A DNA stretch of 64,000 nucleotides from Bryobacteraceae bacterium (GCA_035293725.1 DATGMH010000092.1:24391-88390); one strand, 5' to 3'. Counted from the first letter of the stretch, positions 4,372 through 47,430 are shown. Notes: generated from the sequence alone by a model not told the origin. Program-made: numbers and translations.

Positions 4372-4441
4372 TCCCAGCAGTTCGCACTGCTGTTGGATGC
4401 TCAGGCGTGGGTGCGTGGGATCGATCCATTGCCGTTTGTCG

Positions 4442-4732
4442 TCAGTCGATGAGGCCAGCTCTTTTTTTGAGAAAGTCCAACTCCACTTTCAGTTGGCCGA
4501 TCTGCTTGTAGAGCTCGTCCTTTTCGGCGTCGGACTGCTGGCGCACCTGCTCGCGGCCATTCCCGAAGATGTCGGGCAACCCGGCCAGCGCTTGTTTCTT
4601 CCAGCCCCCGACCTGGGTTGGGTGAACGCCGAACATCTGCGCGATCTGTGCTGCCGTCTTGTGCGCCTTGATGGCCTCAACGGCCACCTTGGCCTTCAGG
4701 CTGGGCGGGTGACTCTTGCGGGTTTTGGGCAT
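4442..4732 (-). CDS. IS3-family transposase OrfA (HTH)
   Basis: MPKTRKSHPPSLKAKVAVEAIKAHKTAAQIAQMFGVHPTQVGGWKKQ... followed by a leucine-zipper-like tail. RBS AAGGAGAG precedes ATG 4732. Confidence 0.9.
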   Translation of the reverse strand: MPKTRKSHPPSLKAKVAVEAIKAHKTAAQIAQMFGVHPTQVGGWKKQALAGLPDIFGNGREQVRQQSDAEKDELYKQIGQLKVELDFLKKRAGLID

Positions 4733-4952
4733 TGACTCTCCTTTATTCTCAATGCCGCCCACCATCTAAGAAAGGGACGTTTTTCTGTCCAAAAAACGGG
4801 GTCCACTACAATCACCGTCGCTCATTCTCTGGCACGAACTATTTCAGAGGCTGTATTACCTGCCGATCATCTATGCCGCGATTTATTTCGGCTGGCGTGG
4901 TGGCCTGCTCGCGTCCGCAGCATCTGCTTTTTGCTACGTTCCCCACATCGTT

Positions 4953-5819
4953 ATGGCTTGGCACCATATGCCAGAGTACGCGATGAACCAGTACGCGGAG
5001 ATCATCGTATTTTTCATGGTCGGTAGCGTCACTGGAGTTTTGGCTGACCTCGGGAAAAAGCAGAGAACAGAGCTGGAGCGCACTTCTAAAGAACTCGCGA
5101 ACGTGAACCGAGAGCTGCAGGACAGCTTCGAGCAGATCAAGAGGGCTGACAGACTGTCGGCGATAGGCGAACTGGCGGCTAGCCTCGCCCACGAAATCCG
5201 GAATCCCCTCGCGAGTATCGACGGAGCGGCAAACCTGATCGAGTCGCCTCAGACCCCGGATGAAATGCGAAAGGGTTCCCTCGCCATCATCCATAAGGAG
5301 ATCCAACGACTCAACCGGTTGCTGACGAATCTCTTGGACTTCGCGCGCCCACGAAAGCCTGACTTCCACCCTGTAGAACCGAGCCGGCTTATCGATGCCA
5401 TTACCAACTTGGCCGGCCACTCCGCACAGCAGAAGGGAATCACTTTTCGAAAGGATGTCCCGCTGTCGGTGCCCCCGTTCGAATGCGACCCGGAGCAAAT
5501 GAAACAGGTCATCCTCAATCTCGCGATCAACGCGGTGCAGGCGATGAACGGGCCAGGCGAAGTGGTCCTGGCCGCTCGCTCCTCGGACTCGTCGGTGATC
5601 ATCTCCGTGCGCGATCAGGGCGTTGCAATAGGTGACGAGAACCTCGACAAACTTTTCGACCCATTCTTCACCACAAAAGAAGGCGGCACGGGCCTTGGGC
5701 TGTCGGTCGTACACCAGATTGTGACCCAACACGGAGGCACCGTAAACGTCGAGCGCAATCCGGATCGTGGCATGACATTTTCGATAGTGATCCCGCAACA
5801 CCAGAGGAGAAAGAATTGA
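4953..5819 (+). CDS. sensor histidine kinase (HisKA + HATPase_c), 5'-truncated remainder after the IS insertion
   Basis: H-box SLAHEIRNPL plus N/G boxes (NLAINAVQAM, DQGVAIGDE, GGTGLGLSVV). The in-frame membrane segment extends upstream to the IS edge at 4812. Confidence 0.85.
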   Translation: MAWHHMPEYAMNQYAEIIVFFMVGSVTGVLADLGKKQRTELERTSKELANVNRELQDSFEQIKRADRLSAIGELAASLAHEIRNPLASIDGAANLIESPQTPDEMRKGSLAIIHKEIQRLNRLLTNLLDFARPRKPDFHPVEPSRLIDAITNLAGHSAQQKGITFRKDVPLSVPPFECDPEQMKQVILNLAINAVQAMNGPGEVVLAARSSDSSVIISVRDQGVAIGDENLDKLFDPFFTTKEGGTGLGLSVVHQIVTQHGGTVNVERNPDRGMTFSIVIPQHQRRKN

Positions 5820-33157: not shown

Positions 33158-33364
33158 ATGGCGAAGGTTCGAAAAGCCCGAAGGGCAGGGCGGTCGGAGA
33201 GCAAGCCCGAACAGGCGGAATCGACCAGGGCGATGCCGCTCAATTTCAAGGTCTCGGCCGACTTCCGCCGCGAATTCAAGACCTACGCCGCCCAGCACAA
33301 CAAGAAGCTGAACCAGCTTCTCTATGAATCCTTCGCAGCGCTGAAAGCGAAGCATGCCGAATAG
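33158..33364 (+). CDS. ribbon-helix-helix (CopG/Arc/ParG-like) small DNA-binding protein
   Basis: A basic N-tail, then PLNFKVSADFRREFKTYAAQHNKKLNQLLYESF, the beta-alpha-alpha pattern typical of RHH proteins. Confidence 0.6.
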   Translation: MAKVRKARRAGRSESKPEQAESTRAMPLNFKVSADFRREFKTYAAQHNKKLNQLLYESFAALKAKHAE

Positions 33365-33424: not shown

Positions 33425-36400
33425 ATGAACCAGCTCGAAGAGTACCTGCGCGAAATGCACGACATCCGAGCCTCCGGCAACGCGGTCAAGGAAACGTCGT
33501 ATTACCCGGCGCTGTCGAACCTGCTCAACGACGTCGGCAAGAGGCTCAAGCCTCGAGTCCGCTGCATCATCAACCTGAAGAATCGCGGCGCGGGCGTCCC
33601 CGACGGCGGCCTGTTCTCCTCCGACCAGATCCAGCGCCGCTCTGCCGAGGAGATACCGCAAGGCACGATTCCCTCGCGGGGCGTCATCGAGGTGAAGGGA
33701 ACCGCCGAGGACGCATGGGTTGTAGCGCAGGGAGAGCAGGTAACCCGGTACTGGGGCAAATACTGCCAGGTGCTCGTCACGAATTACCGCGACTTCGTCC
33801 TGATCGGGCAGGACGCGGAAGGCAAGCCCGTTAAGCTCGAAACCTACCGTCTGGCGCCGTCCGAAACCCAATTCTGGAGAGCCGCGACTCTTGCCAAGGA
33901 GTCCGCGGAGCGTCTTGGCGAGAGCTTCCAGGAGTTCCTCAAGCGGGTGTTGCTCAGCACCGCGATGCTTGCAACCCCGGAAGAGGTCGCATGGTTCCTC
34001 GCATCTTACGCGCGCGAAGCGAAGTTCCGAGTGGAGGAGGGGCACCTACCGGCGCTAGCCACCATACGCACGGCTCTGGAGGAAGCGCTGGGCATGAAGT
34101 TCGACACCGAGCGCGGCGAGCACTTCCTCCGCTCCACGCTCGTGCAGACGCTTTTCTACGGCATGTTTTCGGCTTGGGTGCTCTGGAGCAAGAGCCATCC
34201 TCCCACCGACAAGAAATCCCGGTTTGACTGGCGTCTTGCCGATTACTACCTGCGCGTTCCGATCATTCGCAAGCTGTTTCGCGAGGTGGCCGATCCGGGC
34301 CAGCTTGAGCCGCTGAACCTCCCCGAAGTTCTCGATTGGGCCTGTTCCGTGCTCAACCGCGTGGACCGCGCTTCGTTCTTCTCCTCCTTCGACGAAGGCG
34401 CGGCCGTGCAGTATTTTTACGAGCCCTTCCTGGAAGCATTCGACCCCGAACTGAGAAAGGAACTGGGCGTCTGGTACACGCCGCGCGAAGTCGTGCGGTA
34501 CATGGTGGAGCGCGTGGACCGCGTGCTGCGCGAGGAGTTGGGCCGTCCTTCGGGACTTGCCGACCCCTACGTCTTCGTGCTCGATCCCTGCGGGACGGGG
34601 GCCTTTCTAGTAGAGGCGCTGAACCGCATAGCCCAGACGCTGAGCGAGACTTCCGGCGACGCCCTCATGGGAACCGACCTGAAGAAGGCGGCGACGGAGC
34701 GTGTTTTCGGCTTCGAAATACTCCCTGCGCCGTTCGTGGTGTCCCACCTCCAGATCGGACTGATGCTCCAGCATCACGGTGCGCCCCTGTCGGAAAAGAA
34801 GAAGGAACGGGTAGGGGTCTATCTCACGAATGCGCTCACAGGCTGGGAGCCCCCGAAACAACCCAAAAAGCTCCCATTCGTAGAGTTGGAGGAGGAACGC
34901 GACGCGGCCGACCACGTCAAACGCGAGACGCCGATCCTTGTGATTCTCGGCAATCCGCCATACAACAGCTTTGCCGGCATTGCGCGCATCGAAGAAGAGC
35001 GCGATCTCACGATTGCCTATCGCACAACCAAGAATGCTCCGGCACCGCAAGGGCAGGGCCTCAATGATTTGTACGTTCGCTTCTTCCGCATGGCGGAGCG
35101 CCCGATCGTCGAAAAGACAGGGCATGGCATCGTCTGCTTCATCTCGAATTACTCGTGGCTGGACGGCCTGTCCTTTACCGGCATGAGAGAACGGTACCAG
35201 GAGGTATTCGATTACATCTGGATCGATTGCCTCAACGGCGACAAGTACAAAACCGGCAAAGTCACGCCGGACGGACAGCCCGACCCGAGCATCTTCTCGA
35301 CCGAGTTCAACCGAGAGGGAATCCAGATTGGAACGGCAATCGCGCTTCTGGCTCGCAACGCAGGGACGGGCAGCGCAGAAATCAACTTCCGCGAGTTCTG
35401 GGGCAAAACCAAGCGTGCGGATCTTCTGGTATCCCTGACGAACGAAGCGGACCGTCCCTACACTCCGCTTGCCCCGCAAGTGGAGCTTGGATTGCCGTTC
35501 ATCACAGCGGCCGTCGCCGCGGACTACGCCGCATGGCCGCTCATTACAGAACTCTTGCCCACTTCATTTCCCGGTGTCCAGTCAAAGCGCGATGAAATCG
35601 TCGTCGATATGGACCGGCAGGCTCTCGTTGACCGCATGCAGGCGTATTTCGACCCTAACGTTTCCGATTCGGAAATGCGGAAGATCTGTCCGAAGGCTCT
35701 TGAGAGCACACAGCAGTTCGATGCGCCCGCAGTTCGCGCGTCATTGATAAAACGCGGACTGAAGCCGGACTACTTTGTTCGCTACTGCTACCGCCCGTTC
35801 GATTTTCGCTGGATCTACTGGGAACAGGAGTACGGTCTTCTCGGCCGAAGGTCGCCGGCCTACTTTGCGAACATGCAGCCCGGCAATCCCCACATAGAGG
35901 CCAGGCAGAAGCAGCCGATGGCGGATTTTGACCGGGGCTACGTCACTTCGGTAGTCGCAGACAATTTCGGCAACGGGTTTTCGAACTTCTTTCCGTTGTG
36001 GATTCACGAGGAAGGCAATTTACTTTCCGCCGCCGCGACACACCCCAACGTTTCGGACGCCGCGCTGAAATATTTGGCATCCATCGCGGGAAGCGCGGAA
36101 GCTCTCTTTTTCCACGTCGTCGCGGCTCTGCACTCGCCGGCATATCGGCTGGACAATCAGGGTGCCTTACGTCAAGAATGGCCTCGCATTCCCCTTCCCG
36201 GAAATGCCGAAGCGCTCGCATCGTCAGCAAAGTTGGGCAAGCAAATAACGGCCCTTCTGGACACAGAATGCAAAGTCAAGGGTATCAACGAACCGCCTAT
36301 CCGCGGCGACTTTCACCTCATCGCCGTAATCGAGCGAGAGGGCAAAGGAGCCGTGAACCCTGACGAGGGCGATCTGGAGCTTACCGCAGGTTGGGGACAC

Positions 36401-36770
36401 GCAGGTAAGGGGGGTGCGACCATGCCGGGCAAGGGAAAGGCGATAGAGCGGCCCTACACTCCTCAGGAGGCGAAGGCGCTCGGAGAACATATTTCGATCT
36501 TCGGCGAGAAGACCGTGGACGTGTACCTGAACGACCGCGCTGTACTGGCGAAATGTCCCCGTCAGGCTCTGGGACTACACGATCAGCGGATATGCCGTCA
36601 TCAAGAAGTGGCTCAGCTATCGGGAAAAGGCACTGCTCGGCCGGAGCCTGAACGTCGAAGAAGCCCGCTACGTCACGGAGACGGCGCGCCGCCTCGCGGC
36701 GCTGATGCTCCTGGGGCCTCATCTCGACGAGAATTATCGGACCGTCGTGAAGGGAGCCCACAAATGGTGA
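33425..36770 (+). pseudogene. single-chain restriction-modification enzyme (PD-ExK nuclease + gamma-class N6-adenine methyltransferase + type ISP-like C-terminal specificity domain), frameshifted near 36531-36545
   Basis: D60..E89-V-K91 (VPDGGLF..GVIEVKG), LDPCGTGAFL, and NPPY at 34952-34963. After ..VYLNDR the conserved tail WRNVPVRLWDYTISGYAVIKKWLSYREKALLGRSLNVEEARYVTETARRLAALMLLGPHLDENYRTVVKGAHKW* is in the +1 frame, ending at stop 36768-36770. Confidence 0.8.
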
Positions 36771-36950
36771 TGGCATCCCGCAACGCGCTGAAAATAAACC
36801 GTGCCACAACGGTGGATCACGGGAGGTGTCTGGGCTTCACGTGGGCCGAATTTGTCGTATTCGCTTTTCCTTCGCCTCGGCGCTACAATAGCATACAGGG
36901 CATTCTGAAGCCTCGCTCGCAAGGCGTGTTTCCGGAACAAAGAAGCCACC

Positions 36951-39797
36951 ATGAGTGATCGCGCACAATGGCTTTTCGATTTCGACGCCTCCGCGACAAG
37001 CGTGGACGTGGACGGTCTCGTGCCGGTCAACGGTTATACCCCTCACGGCCGCCCTCCCGAAGAAGTCGCCATGATGGAAAAGGCCGCCGCGTATCGGGCG
37101 CACGCGGTATTCTTTGAAGCTGGCCGTAACGGCGGGCCGCCCGTTGCACAAGCCTTCGTATTTGTGTCGGACGGCCCGGCAGACGATCCCCAGTTCGCCG
37201 AAATGCACCAGCGCCTCTGGTCGTGGGGCTGCGTGCCGCTCGTGTACCGCAAGACGCCGGGCCTCGTGCAGCTCTTCCGGTGCGCGCATAAGCCGGATTT
37301 CGTGTCCGCGACCGGCGAACGTGTGTGCAAGCCGTTCAAAACTCTGAAGACTGCGGGAGCCATAAGCGACGATCCCTGGTGGGATTCAGCCAGACTGCGC
37401 AACGGCACGCTTTGGGACGATCCAGCGGTCTGCAAAATGATGCTGTCGGCGAGCAAGTCCGCCCACAAGCGCCTTATCGACGCCGTCAGGCAGCTCAATG
37501 CCGACCTGAACGAAGAAGGCATCCTAAAGAAGCATCTCCGGCGCAAGCTGCTGATTCTCTCGCTGCTCATAGCCTACTTGGAGGAGCGCGGTGTGCTCCT
37601 CCCGGATTACTTTGGACAGTTCCATAAGGGAGCGTCGAAGTTTTTCGAAATACTGGCCCGCGGCGACGCCCTGGTAAAGCTGCTAGGGGCGCTGGAAGAG
37701 AGATTCAACGGTAACGTGTTCACGCTGGAAACGGCCGACCGTCGGTCCCTGCGAGGCAATAGCCAGCTCGCCCGGTTCGCCCGACTGATCGAAGGCCGGG
37801 AGGAGTTGGACGGGCAACTGACGCTGTGGCAGCTTTATTCATTCAAGGACCTGCCGGTAGAGCTGATCAGCCACATCTATCAGTTGTTCGTGAATGATTC
37901 CAACACCTCGGTGTACACGCCGCCGTTCCTCGTTCGTCTGATGCTGGACGAAGCGTTGAGCTGGAAGAGGCTCGACCGCCTTCAGCAGAAGAACGAGATC
38001 ATCCTCGATCCCGCCTGCGGATCGGGCGTCTTCCTCGTCGAAGCATACAAGCGGCTGGTTCTGCACTGGCGCAGCCGGAATGGGTGGAAGCAGCCGACCA
38101 TCACGGTGCTCAAGGGCCTGCTCAAGAAGGTCCACGGCGTGGATTTGGAAGAAGGGGCCGTGGAGCTCGCCGCGTTCAGCCTGTGTCTGGCGCTGTGCGA
38201 TGCGCTTGAGCCGGAGACTATACGCGCCAGCATCAAGCTTTTTCCACTTCTCGCGGGAAAAACCCTGCATCACTGTTGCTTCTTCCAGGCGAAGGAAGAC
38301 GGCCTTATCAAGGAACCCATCGGCCTCGTGACGGGCAATCCCCCTTTTACCTCTAGTCTCGGTACTCCCGGCGCGGAACGCAGTTACCGGCGTTACGAGT
38401 CCACACACGGTTCCCTGCCGGATAAGCAACTGGCGTATCTCTTCCTGCACGAAGCAATGGAAATGGTCGCTGAAGGCGGTGCGATTAGCATGCTTCAGCA
38501 ATATAACTTCCTGTACAACCAGCAGTCGCTCGCTTTCCGGCGCGACTTCATCGGCAAATGGGATGTGCGGGAGATCCTCGATTTCGTTTCGGTGCGCGGC
38601 CTCTTTCATAAAGGTGGAGCAGACACCAAGGTAATCGTTGTGCTCTCGGAGGCGGTAAAGCCGCCCGCCGACAGGCGAATCCTTCACGCTACCTTCCGGC
38701 GAAGCGGACGTGTCGATGCCGAGCAGGGCTTTGACATCGACTACTACGACCTGCATTGGTTGCCTCGGCAACTCGTGTTGGAAAACGACGGCGTATGGAG
38801 GAGCGATTTACTAGGTGGCGGCCGGGTTCTGGGATTTGTTGACCGATTAAGACAATTCCGAACTCTGGAGCAATTCGCGGAAAGCAGGGGATGGGACTAT
38901 GGCGAGGGATACATTGCAGGCGGACAGAATATCTCCCGCCCGGCGGGGCATATCATTGGCAAGCCCTTGCTACCTTCTGATGCACTGACATCAGAAGGAA
39001 TCGATGTCGCAGCGATAACGATAGCTCCAAAACAACCCATTGAAGGGCCACGCTCAGAAAGAAGGTTTACGCCTCCGATGCTTCTTGTGCGTGAGAACAT
39101 GAACCTGCCCCACGATGTCTGGGAGAAGCACTATCTCACGTTCAAGGCCCAGCTTGTAGGTTTCGCCGCGCCACCCGAGGACCTTCAAAGCATCCGCAAC
39201 GCTGGAGCGTGGTTGAGTGAGACGAAACGGCCCCTTCAGGCTTACGTTGCGGCAATTAGCACGAGCCTGTTTTCTAGGAGGGCGACTGCAGTTTGCGCCG
39301 ATGAAATACTTGCGCTTCCGTATCCAGAGTCCGCCTCTCTTGATCTCAGTGCCAACGAACAGATCCTCGTCGATGACATTACTGATTATTACCGCGATCT
39401 GATACGGCTGGGCGAGGACTCGCAGGCGATGAAGGAAAGCGGCCTTCCGGCGCTTACCGCATTTGCGGCGACCTTCACACGGCAGATCAATGCAATCTAT
39501 AAGCAAAACCCACTTCGGACCCTGAAGCCCTATGCATGGCCTGGCGCGATGTGTCTGCCGTTCGTTTTTGGCGACGGCAAAGTGGATTGGAACGGAGCGG
39601 AGGAGCTGAAAGGAAAACTGGATTCCCTCCTGTATGAACAACGCAATACGACGCTCCATGTCACGCGCATAGCGCGCATTTACGACGTCTCGTTTATATT
39701 CCTGCTGAAACCGGAGCCGGTTCGTTACTGGTTGCGCTCCACGGCGTTGCGCGACGCCGATGAGACATTGTCCGATCTGCGAGCGCAGGGGTTTTGA
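36951..39797 (+). CDS. N6-adenine DNA methyltransferase (Eco57I/type IIG-like) with a ~330-aa unassigned N-terminal domain and a large C-terminal region
   Basis: ILDPACGSGVFLVEAYKRL (motif I) and NPPF at 38337-38348 (motif IV). I recognise no nuclease or helicase motif in the N-terminal third. Confidence 0.8.
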   Translation: MSDRAQWLFDFDASATSVDVDGLVPVNGYTPHGRPPEEVAMMEKAAAYRAHAVFFEAGRNGGPPVAQAFVFVSDGPADDPQFAEMHQRLWSWGCVPLVYRKTPGLVQLFRCAHKPDFVSATGERVCKPFKTLKTAGAISDDPWWDSARLRNGTLWDDPAVCKMMLSASKSAHKRLIDAVRQLNADLNEEGILKKHLRRKLLILSLLIAYLEERGVLLPDYFGQFHKGASKFFEILARGDALVKLLGALEERFNGNVFTLETADRRSLRGNSQLARFARLIEGREELDGQLTLWQLYSFKDLPVELISHIYQLFVNDSNTSVYTPPFLVRLMLDEALSWKRLDRLQQKNEIILDPACGSGVFLVEAYKRLVLHWRSRNGWKQPTITVLKGLLKKVHGVDLEEGAVELAAFSLCLALCDALEPETIRASIKLFPLLAGKTLHHCCFFQAKEDGLIKEPIGLVTGNPPFTSSLGTPGAERSYRRYESTHGSLPDKQLAYLFLHEAMEMVAEGGAISMLQQYNFLYNQQSLAFRRDFIGKWDVREILDFVSVRGLFHKGGADTKVIVVLSEAVKPPADRRILHATFRRSGRVDAEQGFDIDYYDLHWLPRQLVLENDGVWRSDLLGGGRVLGFVDRLRQFRTLEQFAESRGWDYGEGYIAGGQNISRPAGHIIGKPLLPSDALTSEGIDVAAITIAPKQPIEGPRSERRFTPPMLLVRENMNLPHDVWEKHYLTFKAQLVGFAAPPEDLQSIRNAGAWLSETKRPLQAYVAAISTSLFSRRATAVCADEILALPYPESASLDLSANEQILVDDITDYYRDLIRLGEDSQAMKESGLPALTAFAATFTRQINAIYKQNPLRTLKPYAWPGAMCLPFVFGDGKVDWNGAEELKGKLDSLLYEQRNTTLHVTRIARIYDVSFIFLLKPEPVRYWLRSTALRDADETLSDLRAQGF

Positions 39798-39806
39798 AGC
39801 ATATCT

Positions 39807-40523
39807 ATGCTGGCCGATACCCCGGATACTTCAGCTCAGTTCGGCACTCTCAGCAGCGATGTGCAGAAGCCCTCGACGTTCCGGCATGAGCTGATTGACT
39901 TCATTGCCGGTGAGCTGCCCCGCTGGCGGGACCGCCCCGACCGTCCGGCAGCGACGGCAGAGATAAGTCTAACATCGCAACTCTGCGGACACTTGAACGG
40001 TGCTAGCCGGCACACTCCGGGTTTCGACATTCTGCAGTTTCGGGTGGAAGAGCAGGATGAACAGCAGCGCGGGCGAAAAATCGATATGGTTGCCTCTCCG
40101 TGCGGGGCATCCATTTGCGTGGAGGGCCGCAGGCACACGGAATTCGACAGCTTAATGCCGATCGAGTGTAAAAGGCTACCCACCCCGAAGGGCATCGACC
40201 GCGACGAGCGGGAATATGTCATCAGCCGCTACTCCTCGACGGGGGGTATTCAGCGCTTCAAGGAGGGAAATCATGCGAGTGCCCATACGTTTGGGGCGAT
40301 GATCGGGTACTTGCAGGAGGAGGCGACGGCGGTGTGGGATACGCGCTTGGCAGGATGGATCAACGAATTGGCAGGCGTAGAGCCCGGCTGGACGACATTC
40401 GACCTGCTTCATCTGGACCACGAAGACAAGACTTTGCGCTTGGCTGTGTTCCGTTCCTCTCACGGAAGGAAAAAGGGGCTGGCGGCGATAGAACTGCGCC
40501 ACCTTTGGCTGGAGATGAATTAA
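39807..40523 (+). CDS. hypothetical protein, candidate PD-(D/E)xK nuclease partner of the upstream methyltransferase
   Basis: Starts 10 nt after the methyltransferase stop. KIDMVASP (D93) ... MPIECKRL (E120-C-K122). This is a motif-level guess only. Confidence 0.4.
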   Translation: MLADTPDTSAQFGTLSSDVQKPSTFRHELIDFIAGELPRWRDRPDRPAATAEISLTSQLCGHLNGASRHTPGFDILQFRVEEQDEQQRGRKIDMVASPCGASICVEGRRHTEFDSLMPIECKRLPTPKGIDRDEREYVISRYSSTGGIQRFKEGNHASAHTFGAMIGYLQEEATAVWDTRLAGWINELAGVEPGWTTFDLLHLDHEDKTLRLAVFRSSHGRKKGLAAIELRHLWLEMN

Positions 40524-40582: not shown

Positions 40583-40860
40583 TTGTTCGACCCAACGTTA
40601 AACGGCATAATGGCCCAGGTCGAGGCTGGCAAGATCGTCCTGCCGGCGATGGAGCGGCCCTTTGTCTGGAAAGACGACAGGATCACCAAGCTTGTGGACA
40701 GCCTGTTGAGCGGATTTCCAATTGGAACGGCATTGTTGTGGAAGACGGCGACTATGCAGCGCTTTCGCCGGTTTCGGAAAGACGTGCAACTGGATGGGGG
40801 CATCACCGTAGATTTCCACAGCGACCAAGACCTGGTGATCGGCCATGGAATCAGATACTT
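40583..40860 (+). pseudogene. N-terminal remnant of a DUF262 (GmrSD/ParB-nuclease-like) protein
   Basis: IVLPAMERPFVWKDDRITKLVDSLLSGFPIGTALLW matches the DUF262 opening (..FQR.YVW....L.DS...G.PIG.L..W). Recognisable similarity is lost after ~90 aa, and the rest of the ORF is antisense to the XRE gene. Confidence 0.55.
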
Positions 40861-40948
40861 AGCGCGCCTACTCTGGCGATCACACCCCCAACATCGTCGA
40901 CTGAGTCCAGATGTTCCCACCGAATCAATCGCCGTCACCGGCGCTGCT

Positions 40949-41248
40949 TCATCCGCGCTTCGACTCACTGCGCCGGAACTGCCGCTCGCGCTCCTTCACC
41001 CAGCGCTCCATCTGACCAGCCAGCTCGGTGAGAGAAACTTCGAGCACATCGGCGATCCGCCATAGCCGGCTCACGGTCGGATTGATGATTCCGCGCTCTA
41101 CCCGGCTGATATAGGTCCGGTCGAAGCCGCAGTCGGCGCTCACGCGTTCTTGGGAATGACCGGCGCGCTCCCGCAGCTCGCGCACGACGGCGCCAATCGC
41201 TCTCAGTCGGAGATCGCTCGGGTGGATCTGCTTTTGGCGCCGTTGCAT
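40949..41248 (-). CDS. XRE-family HTH transcriptional regulator
   Basis: LRLRAIGAVVRELRERAGHSQERVSADCGFDRTYISRVERGIINPTVSRLWRIADVLEVS. Confidence 0.8.
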   Translation of the reverse strand: MQRRQKQIHPSDLRLRAIGAVVRELRERAGHSQERVSADCGFDRTYISRVERGIINPTVSRLWRIADVLEVSLTELAGQMERWVKERERQFRRSESKRG

Positions 41249-41461
41249 CCGCAGATCCGAGGGTGATACTTTGAGGCGTATCAGCCAACGGCATATACGC
41301 CTCATTTTCGATCTTCGGGAGTCCGGTCCTCCACGAATCGCGCGTCAAGCTCTCGCGCGAATGCAACTTTTCCGTGCCACAGTGGCCGTTTTGGTGTATC
41401 TTATGTTGAGCCTCCCCGACATTGAAGTCGCTTTCCCCTGAGGATCGCTGGTGAACTGCCT

Positions 41462-41974
41462 ATGAGGAGGAAGACCGCTCAGCTCCGCGAAGCCGAAGCT
41501 GCCCTTGGCGCCGAATCGCAGCGCTTGGCTGAGGTGCAATTGAAGCACGTGGATGCCGAGCGCCTGGCCCAAACGATTACGGATTACATTGAATGGCGCA
41601 CATTCGCGTACTGGATGCGCCTACTCGTGGAAGCAGACGGAAGCGTCTCCGACGAAATGAAGCGAATTCTGGAACAGCGTTGTCCAGGATGTCCAGGATT
41701 CCTTCAGTACGCCGACGATTACCGACGAGCTCATCCGAACGAGCGGGAATTCCTGTGGTTACGTTTTATTTCGTGGATCGATGAGGAGATCTTCAGCTTC
41801 GCTAGGACTGAAGGTTGGCAGCATGCGCTTGGTTATTTTGCCGCTCGGGATTCTCGTCTGGACCGCGTGCGCGCGTACTGGTCGCTCTGCGATCACGATC
41901 GAGCCCAGAACCGTCGCGAGCGGCTGACGGCCTTTGAGGAATGGCGTCGGGTAGCTTTGGCTCATGCTCCATAG
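41462..41974 (+). CDS. hypothetical protein
   Basis: 170-aa ORF divergent from the XRE gene, with no recognised domain. Its 3' end overlaps the convergent ORF 41802..43202. Confidence 0.45.
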   Translation: MRRKTAQLREAEAALGAESQRLAEVQLKHVDAERLAQTITDYIEWRTFAYWMRLLVEADGSVSDEMKRILEQRCPGCPGFLQYADDYRRAHPNEREFLWLRFISWIDEEIFSFARTEGWQHALGYFAARDSRLDRVRAYWSLCDHDRAQNRRERLTAFEEWRRVALAHAP

Positions 41975-43202
41975 CCTGCTCCTCGTCTTCACCCTCCTCA
42001 CCCTTTGCATTCACCTCTTCGAGCCATCCTCGATCCGCGCGATCCCAGTTGATCTCGTCTCCGTGCTCTTCAAGAAATGCTCTTAAGACACGATCTTTGA
42101 TGCGCCGATTGCGGCCCAACTTAAGCCACCCCTTCTCGATCCATCCACGCACAATCGGCGCGCGGACGTGCAGTTTGCGGCACAGTTCGCGCTGACTGTG
42201 GTCGGCTTCATAGCGCGCCGTCAGGCCTTCTTCCCAAATCTTGCACCACACGGCATTCTCGGTACGGCCAAGCTCGTGCGCGATGGCTCTTACTGGAACA
42301 TGGCAAATCGACTGCACCAGGAAATTTCGGTCGGCCTCGGTCCACGGCACACGCCCGCCCCGTGGTTCAATGGGCACGCCCAACTTGTGTGCGCGGCGGA
42401 CGACGGCTGCTCGCGACCAGCCCGTCTTTTGGCAAATTTCCGATACAGCGGCACTGAGTCCGACGATTGACGAGCGGGCCAGCAACTCCTCCTCTAATTC
42501 ATCGGTCCACTTGTATCGCATTCCCTTCTCCCGCTTACCAATGGCTCGTTTACGGAGCCTTCGAACGCGCGCCCAAATCACTTCGACTCGTAGCTCTCGA
42601 AACTCCCGTTCCACTTTGCCGACCGCTTTGAAGACTGCCTGGCCGCCAGCTTTGAGTCCGGCTATCAGGATCGGATCGATGTCGTGCCAAAAGCCGTTGC
42701 ACAAGAATGCGGGTAGCCCCTGATTCGCAAGCTCTTCCATTCGCTGCTGCAAAATCTGCGAATCCAGCCATGGCCAGGTGTCGCAGAGTCGTTTAATGAC
42801 ATCGCCCTGACCGTTACGACCGTTATGAATTCCTTCCAGCAAAACCAGGTCGATTTCCTTCATCCAAAACGCGGCAGTGGACCATTGAGGGGAACCCTCT
42901 GGAGTGCTCGCCGCGAGCTTGGCCTTGATAGCGGCCGTCTTCATCTTCGGATGTAGCGCGCGAATCAATTCTTCGGACCGGCTGCGCGCTAAGTCCTCGG
43001 AACCCGCGGCGAGAATGTCTTTCACCAAAATAGCGTCGCCGTCGGGCAGCCAGAGACCGCCCACCGGGATCGAGTTCATCGAGCTTTGCGCAGTCGCCAC
43101 CGGGCCCCTCCCTAAAACTTGGGGACTAGTCTCCTCCGAGGCGGACGCGAGCATTGGGGACGGAGACCCTCTGAAGGTTGACAAGTATTCCCCCGAGGCC
43201 AT
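41802..43202 (-). CDS. hypothetical multi-HTH (Myb/SANT-like) DNA-binding protein
   Basis: Repeated W-containing HTH-like units (KWTDELEEELL..., PWTEADRNFLV...AIAHELGRTENAVWCKIW, ..LHVRAPIVRGWIEKGWL). Acidic and disordered C-tail. Confidence 0.5.
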   Translation of the reverse strand: MASGEYLSTFRGSPSPMLASASEETSPQVLGRGPVATAQSSMNSIPVGGLWLPDGDAILVKDILAAGSEDLARSRSEELIRALHPKMKTAAIKAKLAASTPEGSPQWSTAAFWMKEIDLVLLEGIHNGRNGQGDVIKRLCDTWPWLDSQILQQRMEELANQGLPAFLCNGFWHDIDPILIAGLKAGGQAVFKAVGKVEREFRELRVEVIWARVRRLRKRAIGKREKGMRYKWTDELEEELLARSSIVGLSAAVSEICQKTGWSRAAVVRRAHKLGVPIEPRGGRVPWTEADRNFLVQSICHVPVRAIAHELGRTENAVWCKIWEEGLTARYEADHSQRELCRKLHVRAPIVRGWIEKGWLKLGRNRRIKDRVLRAFLEEHGDEINWDRADRGWLEEVNAKGEEGEDEEQAMEHEPKLPDAIPQRPSAARDGSGLDRDRRATSTRARGPDENPERQNNQAHAANLQS

Positions 43203-43403: not shown

Positions 43404-44003
43404 ATGGAACCGCGGCAAGACGCGCAGACCAGTTTTTGGATTCGGCAGCAGGACAGCCTCGGGAACAAGATCGATCAGCGGATTATCGAGGCGGCCCACC
43501 GGATTTGGGATCGGGCGCGATTGATTGTAATCCGGTATCTCGCGGACGACGCGGAGGCGGCGGAAATCCTCGAAACCGCTGTCGATTCGACGTCGCGAAG
43601 CATGAACAATCAAAACAGAATCGAGTGCTTCGACGGTTATTTGCTAAGGTCCGTCGCGCGTGAAGCAATTCGACGCCTGCGCAGATATCGAAGGATTTCC
43701 TACGTGGACAACGGCAGCCTTGAACGGCTTGCCGGTCCCATCTCCACGAACATCGAGCAAAAACTGGACGAAAAGAAACAAATTGAGTTGATTCGAGCCT
43801 GCATGGATGAGGTCTGTCTGAAAATGTTCGACCTTCGTGTCCTCGAACGCAGCTGGCGTTCCATCGCTAAGGAAATGGGCTATTCGAATGCCCACACTGC
43901 GGAAGTCCAGTTCGCCAAACGACTTGACCAGGCGCTAAGGCGAATGCGCCTCCACCACGGTTCGCGACTCAAGCGACCGCTGAACGAAGATTCTGATGAA
44001 TAG
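43404..44003 (+). CDS. ECF-type sigma-70 family sigma factor (divergent)
   Basis: Region-2-like DAEAAEILETAV...YLLRSVAREAIRRLRR and region-4-like LKMFDLRVLERSWRSIAKEMGYSNAHTAEVQFAKRLDQALRRM. Confidence 0.65.
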   Translation: MEPRQDAQTSFWIRQQDSLGNKIDQRIIEAAHRIWDRARLIVIRYLADDAEAAEILETAVDSTSRSMNNQNRIECFDGYLLRSVAREAIRRLRRYRRISYVDNGSLERLAGPISTNIEQKLDEKKQIELIRACMDEVCLKMFDLRVLERSWRSIAKEMGYSNAHTAEVQFAKRLDQALRRMRLHHGSRLKRPLNEDSDE

Positions 44004-44742
44004 AGGCAATCAATTCGCGTCTCGCAAGCAGGTGAACGAAATCGTCGCGCTGGGCAGACAGTGCGCTCGTACGGCTTATCCTAACCCCCGGCGCGAGGGA
44101 TGCCCCGATGCTTCGAAGTTGCGAGCCATCGCGTATCGTGATCGCCGGTACAACTTGGCCGACCTTCCGATCTCACATGTGGTCACCTGCTCGCCATGCT
44201 TCAGACAATACCTGCGCTTTCGGTACCGATTAATTTTATTGACGACAGCTCAGGTCGCTACCGCGTGTGTAGTTTTGGTCGCCGCCATCCTTGTGTCCGC
44301 AAGATTTCTGCGGGACCATACCACCACAGCGGTCCCGCCGGCGATTACGCAAAACGAACATCGGCCGGGAGGGGCGCAGCCGGCTGAGACGACAGAGAGG
44401 CGTAATCCGCCGTTTGCACTTCAAGTAAGCCTCTCGGCCTTTTCGCCTGTGCGCGGCGACGATTCAAAAAGCTCGCCCACGAAGATCCACCTCCCGGCGA
44501 AATCTCTTCGGATCACATTTCTTTTGCCGTTCGGCATGGAACCGCGGGCCTACACCATCCGAGTGCTGAATTCCGACGGTAAGGAAATCTTGCAACAGGC
44601 CGTTGTGGCGCGGTTACAAGATGGGCTTGCATCGTTCGACGTGGAACTGGATCTCGAGAAGGCGACCGCGGGAACTGAATTGACCCTGCTGATTCGAGAG
44701 CCTGGCCTGAGCTGGCGAAGATACCCAATGGTGGTGGATTAA
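43996..44742 (+). CDS. anti-sigma-like single-pass membrane protein
   Basis: Overlaps the sigma gene by 8 nt. Cys-containing N-domain (CPDASKL...VVTCSPCFRQYL), a TM segment LILLTTAQVATACVVLVAAILV, and an extracytoplasmic C-domain. Confidence 0.55.
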   Translation: MNRGNQFASRKQVNEIVALGRQCARTAYPNPRREGCPDASKLRAIAYRDRRYNLADLPISHVVTCSPCFRQYLRFRYRLILLTTAQVATACVVLVAAILVSARFLRDHTTTAVPPAITQNEHRPGGAQPAETTERRNPPFALQVSLSAFSPVRGDDSKSSPTKIHLPAKSLRITFLLPFGMEPRAYTIRVLNSDGKEILQQAVVARLQDGLASFDVELDLEKATAGTELTLLIREPGLSWRRYPMVVD

Positions 44743-44769: not shown

Positions 44770-47430
44770 ATGAAAGAGCCGAATCCTCAGACACGCATCC
44801 AAGCGGCGCTTCGCATGAACGGTAGAGCCTTGCTTTGCTCAGCCGCGTTACTGATATTGTGCAGCCAAACCGCGCACGCACAACTCCAAAAAGCCAAGGA
44901 ATTGCTCGACCGCGCGCTCCATCTCGCCGATCTCTACAACTGGGCGGATGCAGCGCCCGCATTCACCGAGGCAGAACAACGGTTCAGCAACGCAGGTGAC
45001 CGCCGCGACGCCCTGTATGCTCACCTCGGGGCGATCCGAGCCAATGTCGAGCGCGGCCAGCAAGGATTGCCAGCAGTTTCGGACCAACTTGCAGACGAAC
45101 TCCAAAATGATCCACTGCTCCAGACCGACCGAGAACTGAGGATGTTCTGCCTGATCGTAAAGGGTGACATCGATACCGAAATGAATACCGGCGCAATGCG
45201 CAGCGACTGGCAGGGAGTTGCGTCTCTTGCTCGCGAGCTTGGAAACGAGAAATGGCAGTACCGCGCCTTGGCCCAACTCGGCATCGCAGCATTTTACGAC
45301 GCAGATCTCCCAACCGCGCGGACAAGTGTTGGCACCGCGCTTGAAGAAGCAACCAAAGCGGGCGATCAGGCGGCTCAAGTTCGGTTCCTGATCATTCTGG
45401 CTAATGGCTTGGTGGAGACGAAGGCATTCGATCAGGCCCTCGCGTATCTTGATAACGCGACGAAGCTGGCGAGCACGATTCCGGATGCCGGCTACCAGTT
45501 TACCGCACAGGAGCTTCGCGCCGAAGCCTTGGTCGGCCTGAAGCAGCTCGACGCCGCCGAGCGTGCGGCCAATGAGCTGTTGGCGCATGCGCGCGAAGCG
45601 CGACGGGGATCGCATGAGGCAAGCGCGTTGGGTCTGTTGGCTGACATCGCCGCCGCCCGGAATGATCGCAAGAGCGCCCTCCTGATTCTTAACCAGACCA
45701 TTGGCCTAGCCAAAAGCGGCGGGTACACGCGGCTCCTCGCCGGAGTGTACGCCAGAGCCGCGGAAGTATACAAGCAGGAAGGCGATCTGACCGACGCAGA
45801 GAGCTCTGCTGAGTTGGCTGCTGAGTCGAGCCAGGCAAGCGGCGATTTGTGGGCGGTTCCGCAGCGCTTAGTGACGCTCGCCGGAATTGAGGTGGCCCGG
45901 GGCGACTTGGCCGGCGCGGACCGCGTGTACGACCGTGCGGAAGCATTCGTCGATTCTATGATCGGGAATCTTTCGACCGCTTTCGAGAAAACCGCCGTGA
46001 TTACCGCATCCAGCCAAATCTACACCGAACACTTTGCTCTCGTGGCCGGCAAGCTCAATGACATCTCGAAAGCGTATTCCATAATCGAGCAGGTCAGGGG
46101 TCGAGTGGCTGCTGATCTTCTCAGCGCGGGGTTAGCAAGCCAGGCCGGCGAGGAGGCACGAGAGCGGACGATCTCACAGCTAAAGCTGAAGCTCATGGCT
46201 GCTAAATCCACGGAAGATGTTCGCAAATTGCGCGATCAGATATTTATGGCGGAGCAGGCGAAATGGATATCGCCGGGAGCGGACATCCTCAGAACCAAAT
46301 CGCGGGAGACGATTGGGATTGATCAAATTCGCGAGTCATTACCCGCATCTGCCGTCCTCCTGGAATATGTCATCGCCGATCCAATATCGTACTGCCTGTC
46401 GATTTCACGCACGTCGGTTGGTATCGCCCGATTGGACAGCAAGGCCCGAATCGAAGGACTTGTCGCATCGTATCTAAAAGCGGTGAAAGATAAACAGCCC
46501 GCTGTATCGGAGGGCCGTGCCCTATACGATGCCGTCCTCCGCCCGGTGCGCGAAGTTGGCCAGAAACAGACCGTGGTTATCGTCCGCGATGGGCAGCTTC
46601 ACTTGGTGGCCTTTGATGCATTGCGTGAGCCGTCCGGACGATATGTGGTGGAGGCTCGGACAATTCTGTACTCACCTTCGGCGACCACGTTTTACCTGCT
46701 CGCCCAGGAGGGCATGAAAACCCGCGGAGCGCACAAGGCCCTTTTGGCAGTTGGAGGCATCCCATATGCGCGAAGTCCCATGAACCGGGCGGCCCTGACC
46801 AGAGGGTTCAGTCGTAGCGGCTTCGTGGATCTGCCGTCATCAGAGGACGAGGTGAGAGTTGCGCAGAGGGCGTTCCCTCTGCGCCAAAGCTCGCTGCTGC
46901 TGGGAAGATCTGCAACGGAGGCAGCGTTTAAGCGGGAACCACTTCAGGAGTTTCAAGTAATTCATCTTGCCGTCCACGCCTTCGCAGATCCTACATTTCC
47001 CGACCGCGCTGCTCTGGTGCTGATGAGTGATCCGTCGACCGGCGAAGACGGATTTCTGCAGGCTTCAGAAGTCGCACAATTGCGCCTGGATGCCGACCTT
47101 GTGGTCCTGTCAGCATGCGACACCGCTGTTGGCGCATTGAATGGACAGGAGGGTATAGCCAATCTGTCGAGGGCTTTCCTGCTCGCGGGCGCACGAACCG
47201 TTGTCTCGACTTTGTGGGAAGTCGATGATAGTTCGTCGCTGTTTCTGATGCGGCATTTCTATGCCCATCTGGGCGCGCACCAACTTCCGGCTGCGGCTTT
47301 AACGGCTGCCAAGCGGGACATGCTACGGACATTCGGTCGCAAAACGCTCCCTGCCCAGTGGGCGGCTTTCACTGTCGAAGGACAGTTTGGACGTTCCGTC
47401 GTGTCGAGCCAAGGCAGGAGTATCGAATGA
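44770..47430 (+). CDS. secreted TPR-repeat + CHAT-domain (caspase-fold) protease
   Basis: Signal peptide ..LLCSAALLILCSQTAHAQ and N-terminal TPR-like repeats. The CHAT dyad contexts are VIHLAVHAF (His736, 46975-46977) and VVLSACDTA (Cys783, 47116-47118). Confidence 0.8.
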   Translation: MKEPNPQTRIQAALRMNGRALLCSAALLILCSQTAHAQLQKAKELLDRALHLADLYNWADAAPAFTEAEQRFSNAGDRRDALYAHLGAIRANVERGQQGLPAVSDQLADELQNDPLLQTDRELRMFCLIVKGDIDTEMNTGAMRSDWQGVASLARELGNEKWQYRALAQLGIAAFYDADLPTARTSVGTALEEATKAGDQAAQVRFLIILANGLVETKAFDQALAYLDNATKLASTIPDAGYQFTAQELRAEALVGLKQLDAAERAANELLAHAREARRGSHEASALGLLADIAAARNDRKSALLILNQTIGLAKSGGYTRLLAGVYARAAEVYKQEGDLTDAESSAELAAESSQASGDLWAVPQRLVTLAGIEVARGDLAGADRVYDRAEAFVDSMIGNLSTAFEKTAVITASSQIYTEHFALVAGKLNDISKAYSIIEQVRGRVAADLLSAGLASQAGEEARERTISQLKLKLMAAKSTEDVRKLRDQIFMAEQAKWISPGADILRTKSRETIGIDQIRESLPASAVLLEYVIADPISYCLSISRTSVGIARLDSKARIEGLVASYLKAVKDKQPAVSEGRALYDAVLRPVREVGQKQTVVIVRDGQLHLVAFDALREPSGRYVVEARTILYSPSATTFYLLAQEGMKTRGAHKALLAVGGIPYARSPMNRAALTRGFSRSGFVDLPSSEDEVRVAQRAFPLRQSSLLLGRSATEAAFKREPLQEFQVIHLAVHAFADPTFPDRAALVLMSDPSTGEDGFLQASEVAQLRLDADLVVLSACDTAVGALNGQEGIANLSRAFLLAGARTVVSTLWEVDDSSSLFLMRHFYAHLGAHQLPAAALTAAKRDMLRTFGRKTLPAQWAAFTVEGQFGRSVVSSQGRSIE

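Follow-up and report, generated by a model that had tools for sequence, protein, structure and literature searches.

Type IIG enzymes are defined by a cleavage domain fused N-terminally to a gamma-class methyltransferase in the same chain (PMC3874165), and single-chain enzymes of Types IIG and IIL such as MmeI, Eco57I, and BpuSI carry a helical domain before their gamma-class N6-adenine core and a fused recognition domain at the C-terminal side. In restriction-modification (R-M) systems of Types I and III the restriction subunit (R) relies for its site on the complex of modification (M) or modification and specificity (MS) subunits, and specificity evolves through swaps of recognition domains (PMC3874165). 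Two genes make up the classical Type II systems that have a gamma-class methyltransferase of the TaqI type, one for a methyltransferase with fused specificity (M~S) and one for a small separate endonuclease of the PD-(D/E)xK type (PMC3874165). We have analyzed a stretch of 64,000 nucleotides (nt) from a Bryobacteraceae bacterium (GCA_035293725.1 DATGMH010000092.1:24391-88390), hereafter the window, in which the gene of a gamma-class methyltransferase of 948 amino acids (aa) is followed by a small gene encoding a protein of 238 aa with a PD-(D/E)xK-like signature. We give about even odds to the reading that the pair is an R-M system of the form R + M~S with a dependent R, in which the methyltransferase would read the site and recruit a separate, non-specific nuclease ("split Type IIG").

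The methyltransferase of the window is similar to the Type IIG and IIL enzymes in its gamma-class core, in the helical domain preceding it and in its putative C-terminal fused recognition domain; the recognition region of the MmeI family diversifies within an otherwise conserved family (PMC4081073), as the putative one does here. In contrast with the N-terminal PD-ExK cleavage domain fused in those enzymes, an unrelated and apparently non-catalytic domain is present at this position, together with the separate downstream PD-(D/E)xK-like gene. Since the fused N-terminal PD-ExK domain that defines Type IIG was looked for in the methyltransferase and found to be absent, this protein cannot strictly be called a Type IIG enzyme, and the original prediction, made from the sequence of the window before this analysis, did not hold in so far as it allowed for an ordinary Type IIG enzyme. 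The two-gene arrangement is shared with the classical Type II systems, whereas the methyltransferase is about twice the size usual in these, bears IIG-like helical and N-terminal extensions, and contains a mosaic recognition segment which is not tracked by the nuclease. With respect to Types I and III, the dependence of R on its partner and the exchange of recognition domains are as proposed here, but the conserved module has neither a helicase/translocase motor nor a separate S subunit, and its nuclease subunit comprises only 238 aa. No helicase match, including a superfamily 2 motor, was obtained for the small protein, no third gene was conserved downstream, and the only recurring upstream gene was one of about 65 aa of the ribbon-helix-helix (RHH) type.

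The mode of action proposed for the pair, a small nuclease subunit working together with a large DNA-recognizing subunit, has been described for BtsI and BsrDI. BtsI is reported to be a heterodimer whose small catalytic subunit is inactive without the large subunit, which holds the recognition domain (PMC2909958), and for cleavage BsrDI likewise acts as a heterodimer, with one subunit large and the other small (PMC1950550). BtsI is a precedent for a small catalytic subunit that needs a DNA-recognizing partner, BsrDI sharing the same subunit organization. They differ from the present pair in that their large subunit is a nuclease instead of a methyltransferase and the host is protected by separate methyltransferases; no sequence similarity of the pair to BtsI or BsrDI was detected. 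Large gamma-class methyltransferases are also found as PglX in bacteriophage exclusion (BREX) systems and as MAD2 in the methylation-associated defense system (MADS), and around motifs I and IV they show a weak similarity to ours. Nevertheless, the NCBIfam models gave 35-48 bits where the cut-offs are 400-900, and 18 bits where the cut-off is 720, in the motif regions only. Because of scores so far below the cut-offs and of the absence of the partners (PglZ, BrxC, BrxL, and MAD1-8) from the conserved neighborhood, the methyltransferase belongs to neither BREX nor MADS. Homologs of PglX were at one time entered in REBASE as Type IIG (PMC12707154), and large methyltransferases of the kind described here may be mislabeled in a similar way.

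Both genes lie on the + strand. The methyltransferase gene (M~S polypeptide) extends over 36951..39797, as called from its open reading frame (ORF) and from Pfam and PADLOC matches, and the small gene, for the predicted PD-(D/E)xK nuclease subunit, over 39807..40523, as called from its ORF, its motif and an AlphaFold2 (AF2) model. The intergenic spacer between them (39798..39806, + strand; TGA AGCATATCT ATG) is of 9 nt, implying that the two genes would be co-transcribed and possibly also coupled in translation. The two ORFs of 948 and 238 aa, and the motifs DPACGSGVFL, NPPF, KIDMV, and PIECKRL quoted for them in the original prediction, were all found exactly where they had been placed. Database proteins of 100% identity belonged to a metagenome-assembled genome of Bryobacteraceae (Acidobacteriota).

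Co-inheritance was followed from both sides. Loci containing the small gene comprised 80 genome loci, with one genome retained per GTDB species out of 152 species-level matches, and 6 further contigs, and in all 86 a methyltransferase homolog was located directly upstream on the same strand, the only exceptions to pairing in this search being contig ends and two degraded copies. Conversely, metagenome loci found with the N-terminal domain (N-domain) of the methyltransferase had the small gene downstream in all the 51 informative cases, none showing a methyltransferase without it, and the start of the small gene was visible in eight more, truncated loci. Counted from the end of the methyltransferase coding codons, the small gene began after 2 to 19 nt in the 86 loci and after 6 to 17 nt, in one case after 59, in the 51 metagenome loci. 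The methyltransferase stop codon and the small-gene start codon overlapped in loci L001 and L169, and the arrangement was kept, also with overlapping codons, in a pair of 31-33% identity. The pairing is obligate both ways, with the same strand and order, so that methyltransferase and nuclease-like gene display the linkage and co-inheritance looked for in an R-M system; a lack of co-inheritance, which the original prediction had named among the results that would speak against it, was not what we observed.

The flanking genes varied between loci, with no downstream gene present in more than 5 of 103 loci, and neither BREX, MADS nor other partner genes were conserved around the pair; the two-gene core alone was present in more than 130 loci. 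The second R-M enzyme and the DUF262 remnant beside the pair in the window, which the original prediction had listed with its architecture, do not belong to the module, the flanks differing in nearly every locus. The family is present in at least 150 species, and carriers belonged to Acidobacteriota, Planctomycetota, Verrucomicrobiota, Alpha-, Beta-, and Gammaproteobacteria, Nitrospina, and Binatia, and included a cyanobacterial metagenome-assembled genome (MAG). Most loci were chromosomal and of varied context, and in PLSDB the pair was found on 20 plasmids, an Agrobacterium Ti plasmid among them; 16 of the 20 were conjugative or mobilizable. Carriers in culture are Gluconobacter cerinus NBRC 3267, Novosphingobium capsulatum NBRC 12533, Agrobacterium pTi_CFBP2407, Labrenzia sp. 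THAF187b, and Acidithiobacillus ferriphilus DSM 100412. No match was obtained in 50,697 phage records nor in IMG/VR. All this indicated that the pair is a self-contained, horizontally mobile two-gene cassette. In the annotations of PGAP and JGI it appears as an "N-6 DNA methylase" followed by a "hypothetical protein", and no published description of it was found in a literature search by accession number and keywords (REBASE being outside the scope of that search).

Domain divergence was compared in 113 non-redundant methyltransferase/small-protein pairs, and one hypervariable mosaic segment of the methyltransferase (aa 661-780; 38931..39290, + strand) was decoupled from the other domains in its pairwise identity. 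Identity in the segment was poorly correlated with that in the small protein or in any other domain (r = 0.22-0.35), as compared to 0.6-0.85 among the other methyltransferase domains and 0.73-0.84 between these and the small protein. Identity in the segment was 50% or less in 74 of the 186 pairs that were at least 80% identical elsewhere, and the nearest neighbor of the segment was different from that of the rest of the protein in 36 of the 113 loci. Thus, the pair of the window and that of L093 shared 85% identity in the rest of the methyltransferase and 76% in the small protein vs. 35% in the segment, and L127 and L018 shared 85% in the core, 91% in the N-domain and 88% in the small protein vs. 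39% in the segment. Conserved anchor motifs flanked the segment and also occurred within it, and the variation therefore looks like an exchange of cassettes that leaves a common fold in place, of the kind known from Type I specificity subunits. From its position and by this analogy, we infer that the segment would determine specificity within the target recognition domain.

In its divergence the small protein follows the core and the N-domain of the methyltransferase, not the segment. When the core was controlled for, the partial correlation with small-protein divergence was highest for the N-domain (0.50); the segment gave 0.21 and the other domains 0.18-0.43, a difference suggestive of the N-domain as the part that may contact the small protein. 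Where a single S module serves both R and M, its alteration affects the two activities at once, and this "functional synchrony" lets specificities diverge (PMC4081073). A constant nuclease accompanied by an exchanged segment would fit a subunit that borrows the recognition of the methyltransferase and would be awkward for an autonomous sequence-specific enzyme.

The methyltransferase itself matched the Pfam families N6_Mtase (PF02384; E 1.4e-11, 44.7 bits against a cut-off of 20.4), Eco57I and MmeI_Mtase, which together covered aa 319-566. The gamma-class N6-adenine core was delimited from Pfam and motifs I and IV as aa 331-570 (37941..38660, + strand). Motif I is DPACGSGVFL (aa 353-362; nt 38007-38036), with the central DPACGSG at aa 353-359 (nt 38007-38027), and motif IV is NPPF (aa 463-466; nt 38337-38348). 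A homology search found 1939 methyltransferase homologs, and both motifs were invariant across 68 unique homologs from many phyla. Given the Pfam matches and these invariant motifs, the protein is an active-looking gamma-class N6-adenine methyltransferase, as the original prediction had proposed.

The layout around the core was defined by two PADLOC profiles for Type IIG enzymes (PDLC03623 and PDLC03603, E ~2e-29), which aligned aa 175-656 and 243-720 of the methyltransferase with profile positions 156-648 and 218-720, respectively; nothing in the methyltransferase aligned with the first ~155 profile positions, where the nuclease of those Type IIG families is located. The layout of aa 175-720 is therefore that of a Type IIG-like scaffold. 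Because of these alignments, aa ~175-330 were recognized as the helical domain usual before the core, and part of the C-terminal half was covered as well. The helical domain (aa 176-330; 37476..37940, + strand) begins where the PADLOC match starts, at aa 175, and was modeled by AF2 as all-helical with a local confidence (pLDDT) of ~80. Consequently, the original prediction, which could put no name to the first ~330 and the last ~450 aa, stands for aa 1-175 and ~720-948 but not for the stretches aligned by the Type IIG profiles, aa ~175-330 and the part up to aa 720. The nearest solved structures by sequence were BREX BrxX/PglX, a site-specific adenine methyltransferase of 577-578 aa (8cxz and 7lni), and BsaXI, all of them weak matches confined to the surroundings of the catalytic motifs. 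About 380 aa follow the core, of which the Type IIG profiles reach aa 656 or 720, and no profile or PDB match names a target recognition domain there; a search of PDB with a profile of the C-terminal 378 aa gave an empty result. The C-terminal tail (aa 901-948; 39651..39794, + strand; ...RYWLRSTALRDADETLSDLRAQGF) was strongly conserved and among the best-conserved parts of the protein even in the homologs of 32-33% overall identity (L169 and L170).

The N-terminal alpha/beta domain (aa ~21-120; 37011..37310, + strand) is specific to the family and bears no nuclease signature. No Pfam, PHROGs or PDB match was obtained for aa 1-175, and a homology search with a profile of this domain recovered nothing but pieces of family members, with no new architectures. 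In the 68 unique homologs its conservation equaled that of the catalytic core, and VFFE56, Q67, H86, WSWGxVP, Y99-R100, and QLFRCAH113 were invariant in close relatives. No conserved D...(D/E)xK was present in the N-domain of the 68 homologs, in which D74 and K101 varied, and E56, R100, and H113 were substituted in a 33%-identical homolog that kept the whole architecture. On account of both facts the N-domain was read as non-catalytic, and we propose that it might be a docking or regulatory domain for the small subunit. Readings of this domain by eye as GIY-YIG, HNH or PLD nuclease were dismissed, the required Tyr, His or HxK being absent or not conserved, and the possibility of the N-domain and the small protein being paralogous half-nucleases was ruled out as hhalign found no relation between the N-domain and the small-protein family. 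The AF2 model of aa 1-345 (pLDDT 57) was too poor for fold assignment; its Foldseek matches to bestrophin and peptide transporters were discarded as meaningless, and a weak match of the N-domain model to tRNA-intron endonucleases (prob 0.2) was left unused.

In the small protein, KIDMV occupies aa 91-95, with D93, and PIECKRL aa 118-124, with E120 and K122; the codons of the complete signature are located on the + strand at 39960-39962 (E52), 40083-40085 (D93), 40164-40166 (E120), and 40170-40172 (K122). These four residues were invariant in 64 family members down to 26% identity, and at least 95% conserved in a set of 92 sequences. An AF2 model (pLDDT 79.6, pTM 0.80) contained, in order, helix 52-68, strands 76-80, 94-98, and 117-124, helix 148-153, and strand 162-169. 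This succession alpha-beta-beta-beta-alpha-beta is, in the model, the order of the PD-(D/E)xK nuclease core. E52 opens the first helix, D93 is placed just before the second strand and E120 and K122 inside the third, and the small protein accordingly presents the catalytic signature of these nucleases, i.e., an acid in alpha1, D at the start of beta2 and (D/E)xK in beta3. Its prediction as a PD-(D/E)xK nuclease is well motivated on the basis of motif and modeled topology, not of homology. No match was found in Pfam (also with all 64 members), NCBIfam, PADLOC, PHROGs or PDB, by sequence or by profile, and Foldseek of the model gave nothing significant (best E 0.76 in PDB, and 0.013 with prob 0.2 in BFVD). 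No relation appeared either between the small-protein family and the nuclease domain of the neighboring Type IIG enzyme (hhalign probability 0.15). The original suggestion of a possible PD-(D/E)xK nuclease has thus been strengthened by an invariant tetrad on a matching core, but not by any relative in HMM (hidden Markov model) or Foldseek searches.

At 90% identity the small-protein family fell into 1588 clusters, and at 50% it had 576 representatives, its members being nearly all stand-alone proteins of 225-255 aa. The median dN/dS of the small gene was 0.075, reflecting strong purifying selection. In view of the family size and of this low ratio, both genes of the pair are real and selected. 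Two further observations concern helix-turn-helix (HTH) sequences. In P0346/L170 a small-protein homolog of 35% identity (826-2019) was called as 397 aa with a C-terminal XRE-type HTH (HTH_3, E 1.4e-5), which is either a true fusion or an artefact of gene calling, and on a Labrenzia plasmid (L087, 8032-8256) a separate HTH gene comes after the small gene.

The favored reading starts from what was observed here, namely, the gene pair with its motifs, the strict co-inheritance, the mosaic segment, and an N-domain devoid of nuclease residues. The 948-aa protein would read a DNA site through its variable C-terminal recognition segment, by analogy with known systems, and its gamma-class core (DPACGSG/NPPF) would methylate an adenine at that site, host DNA being thereby marked as self. 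The 238-aa protein would be a PD-(D/E)xK nuclease, with E52, D93, E120, and K122 as its predicted catalytic residues and little or no sequence specificity of its own. The methyltransferase would recruit or license it, probably via the N-domain and/or the C-terminal tail, and the licensed nuclease would then cut near unmethylated sites, cleavage being dependent on the methyltransferase. As recognition would reside only in the methyltransferase, a swap of the segment would retarget protection and attack together, and the RHH protein, found in about one third of the loci, would probably regulate the operon, acting at the TTCGC repeats that precede the methyltransferase gene. To the most specific form of this proposal, a motor-less "split Type IIG" whose non-specific, relative-less PD-(D/E)xK subunit is licensed by docking through the non-catalytic N-domain or C-terminal tail and in which a cassette of ~120 aa retargets both activities, we assign somewhat less than an even chance.

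Several points weigh against the proposal. Type II restriction enzymes of ~240 aa often recognize DNA alone and often have no detectable relatives, so that an ordinary Type II pair is a serious rival. No match of homology or of fold links the small protein to any known nuclease. For a putative interaction between methyltransferase and small protein the correlation of the N-domain is suggestive only, and the lead of this domain is modest (0.50 vs. 0.36-0.43 for three other domains). The recognition role of the segment is assigned by position and analogy, and it could instead be a surface selected by phage inhibitors. A point in favor of the proposal, but of limited weight, is a solitary small gene, the only one seen, in a Gemmataceae MAG (L027, 7043-8717), where the 5' two-thirds of the methyltransferase gene are lost, a frameshifted C-terminal third is left and the small gene is full-length. 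In classical R-M systems orphan methyltransferases are expected and orphan nucleases are not, and this pattern is the opposite of what would be expected for an autonomous toxic restriction enzyme, although little weight can be given to one case in a metagenome-assembled genome.

The conventional alternative is that the small protein is an autonomous site-specific endonuclease of IIP- or IIS-like type and the 948-aa protein its cognate gamma-class M~S, both acting independently on the same site, a reading which we consider possible but distinctly the less probable. The order of M followed by R, the tight spacing, the carriage on plasmids and the neighbors from defense islands are typical of such systems, many ordinary Type II enzymes being partnered by gamma-class methyltransferases with fused specificity domains (PMC4081073, PMC3874165), and a small protein of this size, with a PD-(D/E)xK signature and without detectable relatives, is normal for Type II enzymes. 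An autonomous enzyme must, however, shift its specificity in step with the methyltransferase, whereas the segment was replaced wholesale while the nuclease remained 76-88% identical. The ordinary Type II pair contemplated in the original prediction accordingly retains its place among the readings, but a mosaic segment beside a conserved nuclease argues against an independently specific Type IIP enzyme. The conventional alternative is also at odds with the intact small gene of L027 next to a deleted methyltransferase and with the count of zero solitary methyltransferases in the 51 informative loci; moreover, the nuclease is unusually conserved across phyla (49-74% identity) for such an enzyme, and the strictly conserved extra N-domain would have no role.

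Much less probable, in our opinion, is a methylation-based mechanism other than simple site-directed cleavage, in which the small protein would be a non-catalytic adaptor or regulator, or a nuclease triggered indirectly, and the N-domain a sensor; for example, a phage factor inhibiting or binding the methyltransferase could lead to abortive infection or to a BREX-like outcome. In accordance with this, structure and HMM searches tie the small protein to no nuclease, the conserved N-domain has no function in simpler models, and the methyltransferase has a weak, sub-threshold similarity to PglX models, PglX-type methyltransferases having long been mis-listed as Type IIG in REBASE and BREX restricting without cleavage (PMC12707154). 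Nevertheless, the invariant E/D/ExK tetrad on the expected structural elements is hard to explain without catalysis, the 35-48 bits obtained with PglX models compare with cut-offs of 400-900, and the two-gene core suffices in more than 130 loci, with no conserved BREX, MADS or other partners around it. The least probable of the readings, to which we would give a very small chance, takes the pair for an epigenetic or addiction cassette, the methyltransferase serving in gene regulation or the pair stabilizing plasmids and islands by post-segregational killing. This would agree with the 16 conjugative or mobilizable plasmids among the 20 from PLSDB and with the RHH-type regulator or HigBA-like toxin-antitoxin pair that precedes the module in some loci, but most loci are chromosomal, the way in which the recognition segment has diversified points to an arms race against incoming DNA, and addiction is familiar as a by-product of R-M systems and does not constitute a different mechanism.

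If the dependent-nuclease model is true, the pair would fill a gap between the Type I and III systems, in which a separate, motor-bearing R depends on M/S, and Type IIG, in which R is fused to M~S; the gap would be filled by a separate motor-less R dependent on M~S. This would represent a new R-M organization (R + M~S with a dependent R) and a scaffold, modular by nature, on which restriction enzymes with new specificities could be built; to the known nucleases it would add a family that goes unrecognized by current HMM and structure libraries, for which reason defense-system finders miss or mislabel the pair. A large family (more than 1500 clusters at 90%) with a swappable segment would also be a practical source of specificities, as the MmeI family was. 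Were the pair a routine Type II system, its value would fall to that of a new restriction-enzyme family and a better annotation. In either case it overturns no concept; its key steps are inferred, and it offers a possible organizational link between Types I/III and Type IIG.

Regulation of the module was considered from its upstream region. The RHH-like gene of the window encodes 68 aa (MAKV...LNFKVSADFRREFKTYAAQHNKKLNQLLYESF...; 33158..33364, + strand) and was identified by an HMM built from upstream ORFs (E 2e-22). Homologs of ~65 aa were present in about 25 other loci of the 77 with readable upstream DNA, in most cases 36-151 nt upstream of the methyltransferase, with the family motif LNFKVxx(D/E)F(K/R)(K/R)xFKxYA...LLxEGF. 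Pfam RHH_10 matched it weakly and did not reach the cut-off (E 0.016, and 0.0018 in the case of a homolog). The RHH-like protein is likely a transcriptional controller of the module. In the window its gene lies 3.6 kb upstream of the methyltransferase, with a Type IIG/ISP-like gene between them, a displacement that suggests either that the cassette has received an insertion or that both R-M genes are under common control. Five other loci of Comamonadaceae/Rhodanobacteraceae (L034, L035, L037, L043, and L044; ~4400-5100) had no RHH gene, and a pair of HigB/RelE-like and XRE-HTH (HigA-like) genes was found directly upstream.

The stretch 36771-36950 is predicted to be the intergenic control region of the methyltransferase gene. 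It includes a TTCGC-N6-TTCGC direct repeat (36860..36875, + strand), a candidate operator, and, 3' of the repeat, TACAAT (36884-36889, + strand) as a candidate -10 element. The repeat was the sole match in the window, which is not significant alone (0.48 expected by chance). A similar motif, (A/G)TTCGC, was present in L007, L091, and L093 as a repeat spaced by 11 nt; L010, L105, L120, and L142 have one copy of it, the second half being degenerate. In all these loci TAnAnT follows it at a similar distance upstream of the methyltransferase start. A generic scan for sigma-70 promoters and terminators was uninformative and did not call the TACAAT element.

The upstream R-M gene was called as an ORF of 1177 aa (33425-36958), its true end being at 36770. 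It is a fused Type IIG/ISP-like gene according to Type_ISP_C (E 3.6e-32) and PADLOC REase_MTase_IIG (E 1e-82), with an N-terminal PD...EVK nuclease motif followed by a gamma-class methyltransferase and a Type_ISP_C recognition domain, and without a helicase. A frameshift occurs near 36540, and the correct C-terminus (LYWRNVP...WLSYRE...KGAHKW*) is encoded in another frame, with its stop at 36768-36770. The last ~140 aa of the ORF were rejected as protein, as they are a frameshift read-through into the regulatory region of the methyltransferase. The frameshifted gene could be a pseudogene or the product of an assembly error; in L010 an intact copy of 76% identity also precedes the pair. This gene upstream and the DUF262 remnant downstream correspond to the neighbors described in the original prediction. 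The remnant is a GmrSD_N/DUF262 fragment (40583-41065, + strand), of which no more than ~50 aa correspond to the domain (PADLOC HEC-05, E 8e-16), evidently what is left of a Type IV-like or HEC-05 defense gene, and it overlaps a convergent XRE-family HTH gene (40949-41305, - strand).

Farther downstream, an ORF of 466 aa (41802-43202, - strand) gave weak, sub-threshold matches to GcrA and to MarR-like families and is overlapped by an ORF of 170 aa (41462-41974, + strand), neither of the two being assigned to a family. An 886-aa protein (44770-47430, + strand), composed of a MalT-like tetratricopeptide repeat (TPR) region and a CHAT protease domain (E 3e-61), is preceded by two ORFs with no family match (43404-44742); this could be a signaling or defense-type caspase-like module beside the R-M island.

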